This document shows, piece by piece, positions 20,997-30,504 of a stretch of DNA of 32,000 bases. A program made the position numbers and the translations under genes. The stretch covers positions 123,886-155,885 of the forward strand of contig NZ_QLVD01000032.1 of NCBI RefSeq assembly GCF_003352835.1, in the 5' to 3' direction. The notes under the pieces are model-generated. The model did no database searches and was not told where the DNA came from. It saw nothing but the letters and a program-made list of their open reading frames with translations. Each line of letters starts with the position of its first letter. Within the stretch, counting starts at the first letter, position 1. This DNA is from Ornithinimicrobium murale. Lineage in GTDB: Bacteria > Actinomycetota > Actinomycetes > Actinomycetales > Dermatophilaceae.

Positions 20997-22535
20997 TCAG
21001 CTCCGCCAGGGCCGCTTGCCGTGCAGCACGGTGACGGCCGCCCGGAAGATCCCGTCGGTGCGGGTGCGCCGTTGGAAGTTGGTCATGCTGACCGGGGGCG
21101 TGAACCGTTGGCGTGCAACGGACTTGGCATAGCAGAACTCGCGGAGACCGTCGGCGCCGTGGATCCGCCCGAACCCGGAGTCACCGACCCCACCGAAGGG
21201 CAGCTCGGGCAGCCCGGCAAACCCGATCACGTTGTTGACCGAGGTCATCCCGCTGCGCAGTCTCCGGGCGACCTCCGGACCGTGTCGCCGGGAGTAGACC
21301 GCACCACCGAGTCCGTAGCCCACGGCGTTGGCCGAGGCCACCGCGTCGTTCAGGTCGGCCACGCGTTCCACGGTGATGACCGGGCCGAAGGTCTCCTCCA
21401 CCTGAATGCGGGCGCCCTCAGGGATGTCGACCAGCACGACCGGCTGCAGTGTCCGTTCGGGGTCGGTCAGCAGGCTGTCCGCCCCGATGCCATCATTCGT
21501 GCCCGGCGCGTCACCGACCACCACGCGGGCCCCGCCGGTCACTGCCTCGGTGATCTGCTCGCGGATGATGCCGACCTGCTTGGGCAGCGTGATCGGCCCG
21601 AGGTCGGCGTTCACATCCAGCCCGGCCCGCACCTGGCCCGCCTCCCGCACGATCGCCGCCACGACCTCGTCATAGACCGCCGTGTGGGCCAGCACCCGCT
21701 CGACCCCGATGCAGGTCTGGCCGGCGTTGCTCATCCCGCCCCAGACGGCTGCCTGTGCGGCGGCGGCCACGTCGGCGTCCTCGTCGACGATCAGGGCGTC
21801 CTTGCCGCCGCCCTCGATCAGCACCGGCGTCAGGGTCTCGGCGCAGGCGGCCATCACCTTCTTCGCAGTGGCGGTCGAGCCGGTGAACCCCAGCTTGTCG
21901 ACGCCGGCCCTGCACAGTGCCTCGCCCACCTCGGCCTCGCCCTGCACCACCTGCAGGCACGGGCTGCCGACCGCACGCTCGAAGCTGTCGGCGAGCCACT
22001 GGCCGGTCTGGGGAGTGAGCTCGGAGGGCTTGAAGACCACGGTGTTGCCGCCGGCGAGGGCATAGCCGATCGAGCCCATCGGTGTGAACACCGGATAGTT
22101 CCACGGACCGATCACTCCGATGACGCCGTAGGGCAGGTACTCCACGGTCGCGGCCAGGTGAGCGGCCAGCAGCGTCGAGCCGACCCGTCGCCGGCCGAGC
22201 ACCGAGGGAGCCTTTCGAGCGGCCCACGCCAGGTGCTCGATGGCCAGTCCGACCTCGAGCATCGCGTCACCGTGTGGCTTGCCCGTCTCGCGGCGGACCA
22301 CCGCGGCCAGGTCGTCCATGCCCGCCGTCAGCTCCTGGCGCCACCGGTCCAACAGGTGCCGCCGGCCGGCGAACCCGATGCTCGCCCACCAGGGCTGGGT
22401 CTCTCGGGCCAGGCCGACCGCGCGGGTCACCAGCTCGCTGGGGTCACTGGTGCCGTATGCCGTCCGCTCACCACCGGTGCCCACCGCACCGGTGCGGTGG
22501 CCGGGGGCGGGACTGTCGGCATACGGGCTGGTCAT
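20997..22535 (-). CDS. Aldehyde dehydrogenase family protein
   Basis: 512 aa with ALDH motifs: VFKPSELTP, FTGSTATAK, the catalytic-Cys region NAGQTCIGVERV and EETFGPV. Confidence 0.92.
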   Translation of the reverse strand: MTSPYADSPAPGHRTGAVGTGGERTAYGTSDPSELVTRAVGLARETQPWWASIGFAGRRHLLDRWRQELTAGMDDLAAVVRRETGKPHGDAMLEVGLAIEHLAWAARKAPSVLGRRRVGSTLLAAHLAATVEYLPYGVIGVIGPWNYPVFTPMGSIGYALAGGNTVVFKPSELTPQTGQWLADSFERAVGSPCLQVVQGEAEVGEALCRAGVDKLGFTGSTATAKKVMAACAETLTPVLIEGGGKDALIVDEDADVAAAAQAAVWGGMSNAGQTCIGVERVLAHTAVYDEVVAAIVREAGQVRAGLDVNADLGPITLPKQVGIIREQITEAVTGGARVVVGDAPGTNDGIGADSLLTDPERTLQPVVLVDIPEGARIQVEETFGPVITVERVADLNDAVASANAVGYGLGGAVYSRRHGPEVARRLRSGMTSVNNVIGFAGLPELPFGGVGDSGFGRIHGADGLREFCYAKSVARQRFTPPVSMTNFQRRTRTDGIFRAAVTVLHGKRPWRS

Positions 22536-22568
22536 GCTTCCTATCCTGACCCGCTAGAGTCGGATCAC

Positions 22569-22722
22569 CAAGGTCTGGCGGGGGAAGCCGGTGCGAGTCC
22601 GGCGCTGACCCGCAGCCGTGACCCACTTGTGGGGAGCCGGAATGCCTGCCGGGCCTGGCGCTCATCAGATATCCGTCGTGGTCTGCGGATCGAGTCGCAG
22701 CCGGGAGACTGGCCCGGCGGCG
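22569..22722 (+). promoter_or_regulatory. Cobalamin (B12) riboswitch
   Basis: The conserved core GGGGAAGCCGGTGCGAGTCCGGCGCTGACCCGCAGCCGTGA (22581-22621) aligns closely with the E. coli btuB leader as I recall it (AGGGAATCCAGTGCGAATCTGGAGCTGACGCGCAGCGGTAA). The B12 box AGCCGGGAGACTGGCC (22699-22714) matches AGCCCGAAGACCTGCC. Orientation and position place it in the 5' leader of the CDS at 22758. Boundaries are approximate. Confidence 0.82.
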
Positions 22723-22757
22723 CGGGACGTGGGCCACCGCACCTGGGAAGGTCCCAC

Positions 22758-24572
22758 ATGTCCCGCACGCTCAGCGTGGCGCTGGCCTCGGCCGCGTCAC
22801 TCGCCCTGCTCGCCCCCGCGGCGCTCGCCGCTCCCAACGACGCCGAGGCCACCGAGGCCGCTGCCGACTACATCGCCGAGAACGTCACGCCCGAGGACAA
22901 CGGCGCCGGTGCCAACGCCGACGCCGTGCTGGCCCTGCTGGCCGCCGGCGGTCACGACGACCAGGTCGCCGAGTTGGTCGAGGTCCTGCGGACCCAGGCG
23001 GGGGACTACGCCGGTGCCGGCGGTCCCGCCGCCGGCAAGCTGGCGCTGGTCGCCGCTGCCACCGGTGCCGACGCGACCGACTTCGGCGGTGTCGACCTGA
23101 TCGCGGCGATCCAGGACTCGATCGCCGAGGACGGCACCTGCGGCGACTTCGCCTACGCCTTCGGCAACGCCCTGTGCATCATCGGGCTGGACCGCAACGG
23201 CGCCGAGGTGCCGGACGAGCTGCTGGCCAACTCCCTGGCGTTCCAGGGCCCCAAGGGTGCGTTCGGCTTCACCGGTGAGGACGGTTTCGTCCCCGAGAAC
23301 GATGCGACCGGCATGATGCTCACCGCCCTCTCCGGTGTGGCCGACGACCGCGATGCCGCCCTGGCTGCCGCGGCAGCCCGTGACTACCTGGTCGAGGCGC
23401 AGGCCGACGACGGCTCCTGGGACGGCTATGTGCCCGTCAACACCACGGGCCTGGTGGCCCCGGCGCTGCAGACCCTTGGGGTCGACATCGAGGACGCGGT
23501 CACGTGGGTCGCCGGCCAGCAGACCGAGGACGGTGGACTGCCCGCCGAGGTCGACGGCGAGACGAGCGACCTGATGGCCACCACGCAGGGCATCCTGCCG
23601 CTGGCGGGCGAGAGCTACCTCTCGGTCGGCGAGGGCGGCACAGACCTCGTCGAGCTGAGTGTCCAGGCCGACCAGGTCACCCGGGTCGGCGGCGAGAACC
23701 GCTACGAGACCGCGGCCCAGGCCAGCGAGCGCTCCTTCCAGCCCATCGTGGACACGGTGTATGTCGCGACCGGCCAGGAGTTCGCGGACGCGCTGACCGG
23801 CTCGGCCCTGGCCGGCCACCAGAGCGCACCGGTGCTGCTGGTGCAGCAGGACAACGTGCCGCAGGCCACCGCGACCGAGCTGGCCCGCCTCGACGCGGAC
23901 CGGGTCGTGGTGCTCGGCGGTGACGTTGCCGTCTCCGACGACGTGGTGGCCGAGCTGGCCGAGGTCAGCGGCACCGAGGTGACCCGCCTGGCCGGTGAGA
24001 ACCGCTATGAGACGGCGGCCGACGTCGCGGGCGAGTTCACCGAGGTGGACCACGTCTTTGTGGCCACCGGCCTGGAGTACGCAGATGCCCTCGCCGCGTC
24101 GGCCGCTGCCGGAGCGGATGGCGTGCCGGTCCTGCTGGTCAATGAGGGTGGCGTCCCGGACGCCACCGCCGCCTACCTGGAGGGGGTCGAGCCCTCCTCG
24201 ATCACTGTGCTCGGCGGCACCAAGGCCGTGGCCGACGAGACGGTCGAGGAACTGCTCGCTTACACCGACACCGTCGACCGGATCGCGGGTGAGAACCGCT
24301 ATGAGACCGCTGCCGCGCTCTCCGCGCAGCGCGGTGGAGCCGAGGGCGTGGTCCTGGCCACGGGTCAGGACTACCCGGACGCCCTGACCGGTGCGGCCTA
24401 CGCCGCCATGGGTGAGGAGCCGGTGGTGCTGGTCCAGCAGAACCGCGTGCCGAACGACACGCTCGCCGAGTTCGACCGGCTCGCGGCCCGCACCGTGCTC
24501 GTGCTCGGTGGCCCCGCTGCCGTCGCAGAGGCGGTCGTGGAGCAGGTGACCGAGCACGACTACGCCGGCTGA
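22758..24572 (+). CDS. Secreted surface protein: prenyltransferase/terpene-cyclase-like repeat (alpha/alpha-toroid) domain plus three CWB2 cell-wall-binding repeats
   Basis: ATG at 22758 after GGGAAGG, with signal peptide MSRTLSVALASAASLALLAPAALA-AP. QW-like repeats are present (EAQADDGSWDG, GQQTEDGGLP, IAEDGTCGD). Three roughly 98-aa repeats each begin (R/L/I)xGENRYETAA and contain …ATG..(F/Y)(A/P)DAL…P(V)LLV…VLGG, which is the CWB2 pattern. The first 579 codons of the tracked 1183-aa ORF are antisense to the ALDH gene. Confidence 0.85.
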   Translation: MSRTLSVALASAASLALLAPAALAAPNDAEATEAAADYIAENVTPEDNGAGANADAVLALLAAGGHDDQVAELVEVLRTQAGDYAGAGGPAAGKLALVAAATGADATDFGGVDLIAAIQDSIAEDGTCGDFAYAFGNALCIIGLDRNGAEVPDELLANSLAFQGPKGAFGFTGEDGFVPENDATGMMLTALSGVADDRDAALAAAAARDYLVEAQADDGSWDGYVPVNTTGLVAPALQTLGVDIEDAVTWVAGQQTEDGGLPAEVDGETSDLMATTQGILPLAGESYLSVGEGGTDLVELSVQADQVTRVGGENRYETAAQASERSFQPIVDTVYVATGQEFADALTGSALAGHQSAPVLLVQQDNVPQATATELARLDADRVVVLGGDVAVSDDVVAELAEVSGTEVTRLAGENRYETAADVAGEFTEVDHVFVATGLEYADALAASAAAGADGVPVLLVNEGGVPDATAAYLEGVEPSSITVLGGTKAVADETVEELLAYTDTVDRIAGENRYETAAALSAQRGGAEGVVLATGQDYPDALTGAAYAAMGEEPVVLVQQNRVPNDTLAEFDRLAARTVLVLGGPAAVAEAVVEQVTEHDYAG

Positions 24573-24576
24573 TCTG

Positions 24577-24695
24577 CTGATGCCTGGTGCCTGGTGCCTG
24601 ACCGGCTGGGATCTGGCGCCTCGTCGCCTGATGCCTGGTGCCTGACCGCCTGGGATCTGGCGCCTCGTCGCCTGATGCCTGGTGCCTGACCGCCG
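24577..24695. repeat. Tandem repeat, 44-bp unit, about 2.7 copies (the first copy carries an extra 7-bp CTGGTGC slip)
   Basis: CTGATGCCTGGTGCCTGACCG(G/C)CTGGGATCTGGCGCCTCGTCGC starts at 24577, 24628 and 24672. It lies between the stop codon (24570-24572) and the terminator hairpin. Confidence 0.9.
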
Positions 24696-24742
24696 GGGGC
24701 CAGACGGCTGCTTGACACGCTGAGTCACCCCTGACCCCGAAT

Positions 24743-24786
24743 CACGAGGGCGTCCCGGAGTTTCCGGGGCGCCCTCGTGCGTTTGG
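24743..24786 (+). terminator. Rho-independent-type terminator of the surface-protein gene
   Basis: CACGAGGGCGTCCCGG-AGTT-TCCGGGGCGCCCTCGTG forms a 16-bp stem (one G·U pair). It is followed by CGTTTGG. Confidence 0.65.
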
Positions 24787-24811
24787 TGCCGTATTCCGCA
24801 GCTCACCGGTT

Positions 24812-24990
24812 GGTGTCGTGCAGAAGTGGGCAGCGGTGCCCGGTGTTGCACGACGGTGGCTGGTGGCGCCGGGGTGGTGTCGTGCAGGGGCGGTCAGGGG
24901 TGCCCGGTGTTGCACGACGGTGGCTGGTGGCGCCGGGGTGGTGTCGTGCAGGGGCGGTCAGGGGTGCCCGGTGTTGCACGACGGTGGCTG
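24812..24990 (+). repeat. Left array: about 2.8 tandem copies of a 64-bp unit containing a 44-bp core
   Basis: Core copies lie at 24815-24858, 24879-24922 and 24943-24986. The core is GTCGTGCAG(G/A)GGCGGTCAGGGGTGCCCGGTGTTGCACGACGGTG and the linker is GCTGGTGGCGCCGGGGTG. The first copy has diverged in its central part. Confidence 0.92.
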
Positions 24991-25120
24991 GCCGCGTGAG
25001 CACGCCAGGTGACTCTGTGGTGGAGTCGATCCGCAGGATGGCTGGTGCGGTGAGTTTCGACGGCGTACTTGTCCACAGCCTCGTCAGCGCTGAGCCGACT
25101 GTTTGGGGCACAGTTGCGCG

Positions 25121-26158
25121 ATGAAACGCATACAGGCGAGCGAGCCGGGCGGGGCCTCGCAGGAGGATAGGCCGCCGGGCGTGGCCCGCCGCGCGCGGCA
25201 GCAACGGCGCCGGGCCGTGGCGAGTGCTCGGGCCGTGCGGTTTGGCGGTGTGGTGCACCGGCGGACCCTTCGGGCAGACGGGATCACCCGCGATGAAGAA
25301 CGTAGTGAGGTCCGAGGCGGCCGATGGACCGTGGTGGGGCGGCACACGATCTACGTCGGCGCACCCACAGCAGGTGGCCTCGCTCCGGCCAATGACTTGT
25401 GGGCCTGGCGCCGCCCCACCACCTGGCCCGCCACGGCGGCATGGGCCGTGTGGGAGGCAGGGTCTGGAGCCTTGCTTGACGGCACATCAGCACTCCTGGC
25501 GGCAGGGTTATCCAACTTCGATGACTCCCTGATCCATGTGACCGTGCCTCGCGGGACGAGAGCCAGACGCCTACCGGGGGTGCGCTTGCACCGTCCTCGG
25601 GTGGCGCACCGAGCGGTGGCCTCTGGAGTGCCCACCGTGTCCGTGGAGGCGGCGACGCTCAACGCGGCACAGTGGGCTGTCTCCGATCGCCAGGCGGCCC
25701 TGCTCCTGGTGATGCCGGTCCAGCAACGATTGACGACAGGGGATCGACTCCTGGTGGAGTGGACCGCACGTCGGCGCGTGGCGCGGGCGGAGTTCATCAG
25801 CAGCATCCTGCGCGATGTGACGGCTGGCGCCGAAGCCCTCGGCGAGTTGGACTTTGCACGGCTGTGCCGCGAACACGCAGTGCCCGAGCCGACCCGACAG
25901 GTGGTGCGGGAAGGGCTCAAGGGCCGGATCTTCCTCGATGTCCAGTGGGAGGATTACCGGGCAGGAGTCGAGATCGACGGGGGACAGCATGGCATGGGGC
26001 TGAAGCGGGTGGAGGACGCGCTGCGTGACAACGAGCTGCTGCTCGCCAAGAATCCGATGCTGCGCATCCCCATTGTCGGTCTCCGCACGCATCAAGAGGA
26101 ATTCCTGGACCAGGTGCGCCGGCTGCTCGAGAGCCGGCGACCGGAGCGCCCGGCGTGA
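25121..26158 (+). CDS. DUF559 (Vsr/PD-(D/E)XK-like endonuclease fold) protein with AbiEi_4-like N-terminal wHTH region
   Basis: N-terminal segment: …RFGGVVHRRTLRADGITRDEERSEVRGGRWTVVGRHTIYVG. C-terminal segment: …GRIFLDVQWEDYRAGVEIDGGQHGMGLKRVEDALRDNELLLAKNPMLRI. Both fit the actinobacterial DUF559 family pattern. ATG 25121 is preferred over the tracked TTG at 25103. Confidence 0.75.
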   Translation: MKRIQASEPGGASQEDRPPGVARRARQQRRRAVASARAVRFGGVVHRRTLRADGITRDEERSEVRGGRWTVVGRHTIYVGAPTAGGLAPANDLWAWRRPTTWPATAAWAVWEAGSGALLDGTSALLAAGLSNFDDSLIHVTVPRGTRARRLPGVRLHRPRVAHRAVASGVPTVSVEAATLNAAQWAVSDRQAALLLVMPVQQRLTTGDRLLVEWTARRRVARAEFISSILRDVTAGAEALGELDFARLCREHAVPEPTRQVVREGLKGRIFLDVQWEDYRAGVEIDGGQHGMGLKRVEDALRDNELLLAKNPMLRIPIVGLRTHQEEFLDQVRRLLESRRPERPA

Positions 26159-26199
26159 AGGGTGTCGCCGGCGGGGCGATTGAGGTGACCGCGACGATT

Positions 26200-26392
26200 G
26201 GTGTCGTGCAGAGGCGGTCAGGGGTGCCCGGTGTTGCACGTCGGTGCCCGGTGTTGCACGTCGGTGCCCCCGTGGGGCCGGGGTGGTCGTGCAGAGGCGG
26301 TCACGGGTGCCCGGTGTTGCACGACGGTGCCCCCGTGGGGCCGGGGTGGTCGTGCAGAGGCGGTCAGGGGTGCCCGGTGTTGCACGACGGTG
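26200..26392 (+). repeat. Right array: three copies (63-bp period) of the same 44-bp core, plus a 20-bp internal duplication
   Basis: Core copies lie at 26203-26246, 26286-26329 and 26349-26392, with a partial duplicate CCCGGTGTTGCACGTCGGTG at 26247-26266. The linker is CCCCCGTGGGGCCGGGGTG. Orientation matches the left array. It fills the gap between the convergent DUF559 and SRPBCC genes. Confidence 0.92.
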
Positions 26393-26402
26393 TTGTACAT
26401 CT

Positions 26403-26873
26403 CTAGGTCTCGCGGGCGGCGGCCGACGCGATGTCGGTGAGGTCCTGCTCCAACGCCTTGCGGGTGGCCCTGGCCGCCAACGGACCGAAGAGTCTCATCG
26501 CGACCTTCGTCACCGCCGAGGGACTGGTGAGCTCGGCGCCGAACCGGACGGACAGCTCGGCCCGACCGCCGTCGCCCAGCGGGGTGAGCGTGAACTCCGT
26601 GACATAGCTTGCGCCGCCGGACTCGGCGCGGACCTCGGTGTGTCGCAACGGGTCACACTCAGCAACCCACATCTCCTCCGTGGCCGACCGACCGAACATG
26701 GTGCGGGTCTCCCGCCACCGGGTCCCCACGGCATACGGCCCGTCGGTCATCAGCTGCACGGAGGTGACGCCGCTGAGGGTCTCCGCGGCGCGCTCCAGGT
26801 CGGTCAGCACCTGCCACACCCGTTCGGGCGAGGCCTCGATGACGCGGCTGAGCGTGATCTCGTTCATGGTCAC
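26403..26873 (-). CDS. SRPBCC (START/Bet v1-like, polyketide cyclase/dehydrase-type) family protein
   Basis: ITLSRVIEASPERVWQVLTDLERAAE…VGTRWRETRTMFGRSATEEMWV is typical of SRPBCC. The start is GTG 26873 (overlapping the upstream stop) or ATG 26867. Confidence 0.8.
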   Translation of the reverse strand: MTMNEITLSRVIEASPERVWQVLTDLERAAETLSGVTSVQLMTDGPYAVGTRWRETRTMFGRSATEEMWVAECDPLRHTEVRAESGGASYVTEFTLTPLGDGGRAELSVRFGAELTSPSAVTKVAMRLFGPLAARATRKALEQDLTDIASAAARET

Positions 26874-27397
26874 TCGGTGGCCGTTGCTGAGTCGTCTGCC
26901 GGCGCGGACTCGAGCTCCACGAAGTCCGTGCCGATGTAGAGATCGATCTCCGCGATCTCGCGGGTGTCGGCGACCAGCACCGCATCGGGGATGAGCGTGC
27001 CCAGCAGCTGGGCGGCCTCCTCGCCCTCCGGCCCGTGGTGGATCTCGGCGACCTGTGGCGTCTCGGTGCCCTGGGGTGCGTTGTCCACCGCATCGATGGA
27101 GTAGCCGTGGCTGGCCAGGGCCTCACTGGTGCGACCGGCGATGCCCACTGCGCCCGAAGCGTTGTAGACGTTGACGGTCACATCCTCCGGCTGGAGCGCC
27201 GGGGCCGTGGCGGTGGCGGTGACCTGGTCCTGGTCGCTGCTCCCGCCGTCGCCCCCGGGCAGCCAGCCCTGGAAGTAGGCCAGGGCGTAGAGCCCGATGG
27301 CAGCCAGCAGGGTGACCAGTGCGGTCAGCACCAGGGCGGCGCGGCGGCGGCGACGGCGAGCGGCAGTCGACATACCGGCAGTGCGGACATATCCCAC
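26870..27397 (-). CDS. LytR_C (LytR cell-envelope-related C-terminal) domain membrane protein
   Basis: An Arg-rich N terminus is followed by one TM helix (ALVLTALVTLLAAIGLYALAYF). Then comes VNVYNASGAVGIAGRTSEALASHGYSI…, typical of LytR_C. GTG start at 27397, 7 nt after AAGGAG. Confidence 0.75.
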   Translation of the reverse strand: MGYVRTAGMSTAARRRRRRAALVLTALVTLLAAIGLYALAYFQGWLPGGDGGSSDQDQVTATATAPALQPEDVTVNVYNASGAVGIAGRTSEALASHGYSIDAVDNAPQGTETPQVAEIHHGPEGEEAAQLLGTLIPDAVLVADTREIAEIDLYIGTDFVELESAPADDSATATE

Positions 27398-30100: not shown

Positions 30101-30380
30101 GACCGTGCGACGGTGTTGACGCGCGCGTGGTTCCCCGGAGACGGAGACGGCCCCCCGCGCACCTGGAAGAGCTCACCTGCCCTTGCTGCATTCCTGCCCT
30201 GGGGGAGTTCAGTGAGGTACCACCGCACGGGGGACCGCCTCCATGATAAGCGTCCGGAGCGCGCCTGACGAAACCTGGCCCCGGACGGCGGCGCCGGCTG
30301 CGGTGCGACATCACCTGCGCGAGGCGACGGCCGAGCGGGCTCGCGGCCCGCACCCGGTCAGGTCTCGCCGGGCGGGGACC

Positions 30381-30416: not shown

Positions 30417-30504
30417 TGGCGGAGGATGGGGGATTTGAACCCCCGAGGGTTTTATCCCAACACGATTTCCAATCGTGCGCACTAGGCCACTATGCGAATC
30501 CTCC
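30417..30504 (-). tRNA. tRNA-Ser (anticodon GGA), CCA encoded
   Basis: The reverse complement reads GGAGGATTCGCATAGTGGCCTAGTGCGCACGATTGGAAATCGTGTTGGGATAAAACCCTCGGGGGTTCAAATCCCCCATCCTCCGCCA. It has a 7-bp acceptor stem and an anticodon stem CACGA/TCGTG with loop TTGGAAA. A long variable arm, a T-arm GGGGG-TTCAAAT-CCCCC, discriminator G and CCA complete the fold. Confidence 0.93.

Follow-up and report, generated by a model that had tools for sequence, protein, structure and literature searches.

The 32-kb stretch of Ornithinimicrobium murale DNA that was analysed, in the following referred to as the window, harbours a gene for a secreted protein that comprises a predicted alpha/alpha toroid followed by three CWB2 cell-wall-binding repeats. 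The gene is preceded by a cobalamin riboswitch located on the same strand and followed by a strong hairpin, and its upstream neighbour is a divergent aldehyde dehydrogenase gene. A first-pass annotation, made from the sequence alone, had proposed that the toroid protein scavenges vitamin B12 (cobalamin) or other corrinoids. As judged from the comparison with related loci, the locus most likely represents a B12-repressed single-gene unit encoding a wall-tethered corrinoid-capture protein. The features of the locus are compiled in Table 1.

Scanning of the whole window with the Rfam covariance model RF00174 yielded a match above the gathering score (E = 1.7e-8), and a rescan of the leader alone returned the identical aptamer. 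The match ends 90 nucleotides 5′ of the ATG at position 22758 and includes the riboswitch core, GGGAAGCCGGUGCGAGUCCGGCGCUGACCCGCAGCCGUGA, which the first-pass annotation had located at 22581-22621. Both the core and the B12 box are aligned with high posterior probability. However, the B12 box is not found at 22699-22714, as assumed before, since this sequence lies outside of the aptamer. Rfam assigns the box to a sequence further upstream that is nearly invariant across four orthologous leaders. We also considered that 22699-22714 represents the true B12 box and that the nucleotides 22624-22698 constitute a long P6 extension. This arrangement was rejected, since conservation of the stretch is lost in the leaders of the orthologues L006 and L016 (L numbers designate the loci of relatives), in contrast to that of the box at 22634-22650. 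The sequence of the small hairpin at 22699-22718 is likewise unconserved in these two leaders. Moreover, the P6 peripheral extension characteristic of the class I architecture is nearly missing, as the element provides 7 nucleotides for 64 model positions. The aptamer, which is conserved in L001, L006, L016 and L081, thus appears to resemble the cobalamin riboswitch classes without a P6 extension.

Downstream of the aptamer, the Shine-Dalgarno sequence GGGAAGG is located at 22745-22751, and its last bases are covered by the 3′ arm of the P13-like hairpin. The corresponding helix 10 is 90% paired in four orthologous leaders and contains one compensatory pair. In the first-pass annotation, a GTGGG/CCCAC pairing around the Shine-Dalgarno sequence had been suggested. 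Our analysis indicates that an overlapping helix is indeed conserved, but that it is formed by GGGCC and GGUCC and is therefore not identical to the one initially drawn. In addition, the nucleotides UGCG of loop L5 (22592-22595) are complementary to CGCA (22738-22741) in the loop of this hairpin. This complementarity holds in 15 of 16 cells, and one compensatory double change from C-G to A-U is present in L006. This covariation is suggestive of a kissing loop between L5 and the loop of the Shine-Dalgarno hairpin; OFF logic by such an L5/loop pairing is usual for cobalamin riboswitches that lack a P6 extension. An intrinsic terminator is not evident in the riboswitch leader, and the expression platform alone folded no better than shuffled sequence (z = -0.79). 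Binding of cobalamin would thus promote pairing of L5 with the loop of the hairpin at 22731-22754 and thereby stabilise it, and the stabilised hairpin would hide the Shine-Dalgarno sequence and turn off translation. The toroid protein would be made when B12 is low.

The encoded protein starts with MSRTLSVALASAASLALLAPAALA followed by AP, which on reading resembles a Sec signal peptide, in line with the initial annotation, and homologues show a like N-terminal pattern. The QW repeats pointed out at that stage were recovered as well: the QW-type segment YLVEAQADDGSWDG aligned with the QW repeats of squalene-hopene cyclase, and the Pfam family SQHop_cyclase_C scored just above its cut-off (26.4 versus 26.1 bits). 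All 18 residues that are invariant in the family are present in the window protein. The three CWB2 repeats, likewise anticipated, correspond to three tandem stretches matching PF04122, with GENRYETA motifs at residues 312, 413 and 511. Together with the signal peptide, they place the protein among the CWB2-anchored surface proteins. It would be exported by the Sec pathway and then held non-covalently on a wall polymer by means of the CWB2 repeats.

Table 1. Features of the riboswitch-controlled toroid gene in the window (positions are those of the window)
Feature	Position	Strand	Basis or remark
Cobalamin riboswitch aptamer (RF00174)	22535-22667	+	45.4 bits; gathering score 31.5
P5 stem and loop L5 (UGCGAGU, 22592-22598)	22587-22603	+	Rfam alignment
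B12 box GAGCCGGAAUGCCUGCC	22634-22650	+	RF00174 model positions ~155-172
Expression-platform hairpin UCCGUCGUGGUCUGCGGA	22672-22689	+	helix 8; 100% of cells paired; kept in 7 leaders
Small hairpin, expression platform	22699-22718	+	B12-box-like only in the window and L001
P13-like hairpin, GGGCC (22731-22735) with GGUCC (22750-22754)	22731-22754	+	helix 10
Coding sequence, wall-anchored toroid protein, 604 residues plus stop	22758-24572	+	Pfam domains; frame signal of the G+C content at third codon positions (GC3)
Predicted Sec signal peptide, residues 1-24, AxA motif ALA before AP	22758-22829	+	sequence reading
Alpha/alpha toroid domain, residues 25-303 (~280 residues), proposed corrinoid-binding module	22830-23666	+	AlphaFold2, Foldseek, profile search
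Three CWB2 repeats, residues 305-402, 403-502, 503-604	23670-24569	+	PF04122, E = 2.3e-56
23-bp G+C-rich hairpin with short U run (UUU tail), likely transcription terminator	24737-24786	+	fold -44.2 kcal/mol, z = -5.8

The strong hairpin found 3′ of the toroid gene agrees with the terminator previously noted at 24743-24786. It was missed by the consensus terminator scan because it possesses only a UUU tail; the promoter and terminator consensus scans of positions 22200-25200, which are ill-suited to actinobacteria with a high G+C content, gave no match. Directly 3′ of the toroid stop codon and before this hairpin, a 44-nucleotide unit is present in about three tandem copies (24566-24713). The earlier view of a monocistronic unit holds, as no co-directional open reading frame (ORF) with a clear coding signal was found 3′ of the toroid gene. 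Moreover, nothing resembling a transporter or a cob gene was detected within the 32-kb window. On the upstream side, the divergent aldehyde dehydrogenase gene has its start codon (22533-22535) right at the 5′ end of the riboswitch match, and a like abutment of aldehyde dehydrogenase and riboswitch is seen in L081 (2068-2072, compared to 22533-22543 of the window). Because of this arrangement, the promoter of the riboswitch transcript must overlap the 5′ coding region of the neighbouring gene.

A model of residues 25-303, built by AlphaFold2 with ten homologues, indicates a confident alpha/alpha toroid of twelve helices (predicted local distance difference test, pLDDT, 94.5; predicted template modelling score, pTM, 0.93). 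When the model was compared with the PDB by Foldseek, drimenyl diphosphate synthase (E = 6.7e-6) and squalene-hopene cyclases were found, together with transcobalamin (4zrp, E = 5.6e-5, template modelling score, TM, 0.66; also 2bb6 and 8ixt) and intrinsic factor (2pmv, root-mean-square deviation 4.1). The matches to the alpha domains of transcobalamin and intrinsic factor range from E = 5.6e-5 to 9e-4, with TM values of 0.60-0.67, and thus reach scores similar to those of the terpene cyclases. By both sequence match and predicted fold, the domain belongs to the toroid superfamily of terpene cyclases and prenyltransferases. The predicted model likewise displays the alpha6/alpha6 barrel of the transcobalamin alpha domain, a trait that is not specific to these carriers. 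The family is large: an exhaustive profile search retrieved 14,042 cluster representatives at E <= 0.001, with 994 remaining at E <= 1e-30, and many members contain 2-6 tandem toroids. The nearest homologues all combine a signal peptide with a surface anchor of variable type: some carry three CWB2 repeats, others an LPXTG motif or a C-terminal transmembrane helix plus basic tail.

We therefore asked whether the riboswitch is retained in relatives, which were sampled as 80 loci on contigs representing one genome per species. The closest relative is Ornithinimicrobium cavernae with 70% identity; a look-up of the exact sequence of the window protein returned no record. At the gathering score, RF00174 was detected upstream of the toroid gene and on the same strand in 14 of the first 20 loci and in 16 of the next 19. 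In sum, 30 of 39 non-Streptomyces loci of Actinomycetota and Chloroflexota, among them seven of Chloroflexota, carry the riboswitch upstream of a toroid homologue; of the nine loci lacking a match, four have less than 450 nucleotides of upstream sequence. Among 18 mainly Streptomyces loci, six reached the gathering score. The element of L001 (30.3 bits) is homologous to that of the window, and the other CWB2-fused orthologues, which stem from metagenomes, scored 50.3 (L081), 27.0 (L084) and 27.3 bits (L085). Hence, all examined CWB2-fused orthologues keep the riboswitch, three of them slightly under the Rfam cut-off. In L084 and L085 it is present despite neighbours unlike those of the window, the upstream gene encoding a UPRTase in L084 and another protein in L085. 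Since the riboswitch is kept across the loci of relatives, its association with the toroid gene is a property of the protein family and not of one locus.

At several loci we observed a second cobalamin riboswitch facing in the opposite direction, on the minus strand (L033 1869-1944, L039 1885-1991, L042 2815-2892, L063 2733-2879 and L085 259-336). Such back-to-back pairs would control the divergent gene as well.

The gene order in relatives provides a further link to B12. In Propionibacteriaceae relatives, an operon begins with the toroid gene, which is followed by one or two genes for small secreted proteins, a gene for the T component of an energy-coupling factor (ECF) transporter of the CbiQ family, and a duplicated ATP-binding cassette (ABC) ATPase gene. 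Examples of riboswitch-controlled operons of relatives with genes for the toroid, the small domain, an ECF T component and an ATPase are found at L010 3047-8751, L020 3761-8608 and L075 3116-6290. When 76 downstream ORFs from 38 loci were searched against Pfam, 24 matched CbiQ and 17 matched ABC_tran. Correspondingly, tblastn analysis of the 80 loci identified the small secreted domain in 71, the ECF T component in 69 and the ECF ATPase in 67 of them. In at least 17 loci, tblastn moreover revealed a further copy of the small domain that is fused N-terminally to the toroid within one ORF.

The small domain shows a weak match to the NCBIfam "SCO2322 family" and bears the precomputed label PF28005. 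In its AlphaFold2 model, the domain reaches a pLDDT of ~95, and the best PDB match of the model is the isolated beta domain of human transcobalamin (5no0, probability 0.99, TM 0.61). The nine best matches comprise the transcobalamin beta domain (5no0, 5np4), whole transcobalamins, intrinsic factor and the DUF4430 protein 3u7z, and unrelated folds rank only below them. The predicted structure provides moderate evidence that the small domain is transcobalamin-beta-like. Taken together, the adjacency and fusion of the two domains, the riboswitch and the transporter genes suggest that the relatives encode a two-domain, transcobalamin-like extracellular binder that is attached to an ECF importer.

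In the light of the riboswitch conservation, the ECF operons of relatives and their beta-like partner, the comparative evidence supports B12 scavenging as a candidate role of the window protein, and we consider it probable that the protein serves the extracellular acquisition of corrinoids. Family context and fold suggest that, at the cell surface, the toroid would bind cobalamin or a different corrinoid, either alone or with a transcobalamin-beta-like partner encoded elsewhere. The captured corrinoid would then be handed to a membrane importer that is likewise encoded elsewhere. The clade of the window is an orphan variant, being monocistronic and CWB2-anchored and lacking the partner domain and the transporter within 32 kb. 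We propose that in this clade the toroid gene was split off from the operon and that an LPXTG or transmembrane anchor was exchanged for CWB2 repeats.

Several observations weigh against this interpretation. On the toroid model, terpene cyclases score as well as or better than transcobalamin, and as any alpha/alpha toroid matches the transcobalamin alpha domain at the level of the fold, the fold match to transcobalamin alone does not discriminate. When searched against PDB sequences, the family profile was nearest to squalene-hopene cyclase (E = 2.9e-33), and neither transcobalamin nor intrinsic factor was found at E <= 10. Likewise, a Pfam scan of the window protein at E <= 1 yielded no match to the transcobalamin families Cobalamin_bind and DUF4430. 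The link to the animal carriers thus exists at the fold level only. Regarding the partner domain, the Foldseek E-values are weak (0.048 upwards), a Pfam search of ten proteins at E <= 5 revealed no match to DUF4430, and the profile of the domain retrieved nothing meaningful from PDB sequences. In the window itself, tblastn with the partner domain, the ECF T component and the ECF ATPase gave matches at chance level only, and the loci L001, L003, L006 and L016 from Ornithinimicrobium and Ornithinicoccus relatives are devoid of all three nearby. As partner domain and transporter are absent from the vicinity, the toroid may act differently in the clade of the window. In addition, most operons of relatives do not encode a recognisable ECF S component, PF12822 being found in 2 of the 76 downstream ORFs; its gene is either located elsewhere, or the systems function in the absence of an S component. 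Finally, the kissing loop is deduced from a set of 4-7 leaders that are closely related, and the register is variable: upon inclusion of three added leaders, an L5-to-loop pairing of 4-5 bp could be drawn in five of seven, with a shifted register.

The composition of the relatives' operons would also be compatible with an extracytoplasmic accessory of an ECF system that serves the uptake of cobalt ions, cobinamide or a lower-ligand base, comparable to NikK and NikL, which are accessories of nickel and cobalt ECF systems. The transporter component indeed matches the Pfam family CbiQ, annotated as 'cobalt transport protein', but CbiQ is a generic family of ECF T components and its name is therefore not indicative of cobalt. 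The 76 downstream ORFs matched 40 families, and the 25 of these that were listed do not include CbiM. One of the structural matches of the partner domain, the DUF4430 protein 3u7z, entered the PDB as a 'putative metal binding protein'; the best matches of the partner domain, however, are cobalamin-bound transcobalamin beta domains, and the fusion of toroid and beta-like domain mirrors the two-domain cobalamin carriers. Thus, even though B12 riboswitches are common on cobalt ECF systems (PMC2667541), we regard a role in the uptake of cobalt or of a fragment of B12 as unlikely.

The sequence-level relationship of the toroid to class II terpene cyclases raises the question of whether the protein could be an extracellular enzyme made at B12 scarcity, for instance for the remodelling or release of corrinoids, or a wall protein whose function is unrelated to binding. 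An aspartate is kept at the position of D376 of squalene-hopene cyclase, and this residue (D182) is nearly invariant in the family. However, the catalytic DXDD(TA) motif is incomplete, since DVDDTA of squalene-hopene cyclase aligns to ENDATG with D374 replaced by E and D377 by A, and a secreted protein is kept away from isoprenoid diphosphate substrates. The consistent linkage of the family to a transporter and a carrier-like partner domain likewise argues against catalysis, and the presence of 2-6 toroids in tandem fits binding modules better than enzymes, which renders this explanation improbable. A last alternative holds that the riboswitch is a relic or acts elsewhere, for example on the divergent aldehyde dehydrogenase gene, and that the toroid-CWB2 protein is unconnected to B12. 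The aptamer match does begin at the start codon of the divergent gene, and three orthologues of the CWB2 clade score slightly below the Rfam cut-off. Nevertheless, the aptamer is oriented with the toroid gene and ends shortly before its start, remains with this gene where the neighbour differs (L084, L085), and accompanies distant homologues in two phyla. We consider a riboswitch without relation to the toroid protein to be highly improbable. The capture of corrinoids at the cell wall remains the interpretation that we favour.

In addition to the toroid locus, the window contains several other features. The region from 24.8 to 27.4 kb shows a weak coding signal throughout and comprises two direct arrays of a unit of ~64 nucleotides (24808-24999 with three copies and 26196-26405 with three to four copies), and the inverted pair GTCGTGCA...TGCACGAC is contained in every unit. 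Between the arrays lies a 1.2-kb stretch with an ORF of 351 codons (25103-26158) whose GC3 is only 0.77, and this stretch may represent a repeat-bounded insertion. Pfam and NCBIfam scans assigned no family to this ORF or to the ORF at 26244-26939. The ORF at 26870-27397 on the minus strand matches the NCBIfam envelope integrity protein Cei at 53.7 bits, which is below the cut-off of 150. Further on, two ordinary housekeeping genes are located on the minus strand, namely a bacterial small signal recognition particle RNA (30143-30239, 66.5 bits) and a tRNA with a long variable arm (30420-30504, 54.6 bits).

The capture of B12 at the surface of Gram-positive bacteria, and of actinobacteria in particular, is poorly understood, and the known surface binders BtuG, BtuH and BtuJ belong to the outer membranes of Bacteroidetes. 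A publication describing the toroid protein family was not found in the full-text literature, the coverage of which excludes most subscription journals. The locus points to a large family of surface-tethered toroids, and this family is tied to B12 through its riboswitches, through an ECF module and through the transcobalamin-beta-like domain. Should the toroid bind corrinoids, it would represent a new class of bacterial B12 binders and offer a testable origin for the fold of animal transcobalamin and intrinsic factor, and an ECF transporter that cooperates with binding proteins outside of the cell might come to light. In this case, the toroid would moreover provide a compact, wall-displayed B12-binding module for biotechnology. 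In a more speculative scenario, which we put forward tentatively and regard as rather doubtful in its entirety, monoderm Actinomycetota and Chloroflexota would possess a split, surface-tethered counterpart of transcobalamin, in which the toroid and the beta-type domain clasp the corrinoid outside of the cell and deliver it to an ECF T/ATPase module without a canonical S component, that is, to a binding-protein-dependent importer. The beta-alpha fusions would then be a possible source of the animal carriers, and the stand-alone CWB2 toroid of the window would be a derived 'wall reservoir'.

The comparison with known systems puts these features into context. With squalene-hopene cyclase and other class II terpene cyclases, the toroid shares sequence homology including the QW-type repeats. 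However, these are two-domain enzymes, whereas the window protein contains a single secreted toroid of ~280 residues with an incomplete DXDD motif. Its anchor is reminiscent of the Cwp and S-layer proteins of Clostridioides difficile, which likewise combine three tandem CWB2 repeats as a non-covalent anchor with a variable domain; in line with this, NCBIfam reports a partial match of the window protein to the S-layer protein SlpA. In contrast to these proteins, the window protein stems from an actinobacterium, its functional domain is a toroid, and its gene is placed under a cobalamin riboswitch.

The operons of the SCO2321-SCO2325 type in Streptomyces resemble those of the relatives, as both encode SCO2322-like proteins (NF040672, 'SCO2322 family protein'), an ECF T component and an ATPase, and several Streptomyces loci carry RF00174 upstream. 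Residues 50-119 of the window protein match NF053823 ('SCO2321 family membrane protein'), but with 39.9 bits compared to a cut-off of 300 the protein does not belong to this family. Moreover, the Streptomyces protein has a C-terminal transmembrane anchor, and the shared segment is located at its C-terminal end. This is seen in the SCO2321-type protein of Streptomyces atratus (L075 3116-4435), in which a signal peptide precedes a toroid and a transmembrane helix is found at the C-terminus; the position of the segment that is similar to residues 50-119 suggests a circular permutation of helical-hairpin repeats. The window gene lies outside of such an operon, as do those of L001, L003, L006 and L016. 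A functional study of the SCO2321 and SCO2322 families was not found in the literature searched.

ECF-CbrT is a cobalamin importer of the ECF type from the Gram-positive bacterium Lactobacillus delbrueckii (PMC5997447), and the operons of relatives likewise encode ECF T and A components, in their case under the control of a B12 riboswitch. CbrT itself is a membrane S component, whereas the operons of relatives mostly lack a recognised S component and encode two secreted domains instead. The proposed role of the window protein, surface capture followed by hand-over to a transporter, resembles that of BtuG, BtuH and BtuJ. No extracellular binding protein is known for CbrT, and the folds of the three Bacteroides proteins are unrelated to the toroid. 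BtuG, BtuH and BtuJ are surface B12-binding lipoproteins encoded in uptake loci with B12 riboswitches (PMC6143338, PMC8941943, bioRxiv 10.1101/2025.07.01.662609). They reside in the outer membrane of diderm bacteria and act with the TonB-dependent BtuB, in contrast to the wall or membrane anchor and the ECF link of the monoderm proteins described here.

The closest analogy in architecture is provided by the animal carriers transcobalamin, intrinsic factor and haptocorrin, which consist of an alpha6/alpha6 barrel and a beta domain. A sequence relationship to these carriers was not detected, and the bacterial fusions are arranged in the order beta then alpha. In contrast to the soluble carriers, the window protein is wall-tethered and contains the alpha-type domain only, for which ligand binding is proposed; a beta domain is absent from the polypeptide and is not encoded in the window, which sets the protein apart from the transcobalamin family. 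Nevertheless, the toroid is of a like fold class as the alpha domain of these carriers, and the modelled partner of the relatives best matches the transcobalamin beta domain, with the two domains being fused or encoded adjacently. Like the animal carriers, the bacterial proteins are extracellular and would take part in the uptake of B12.

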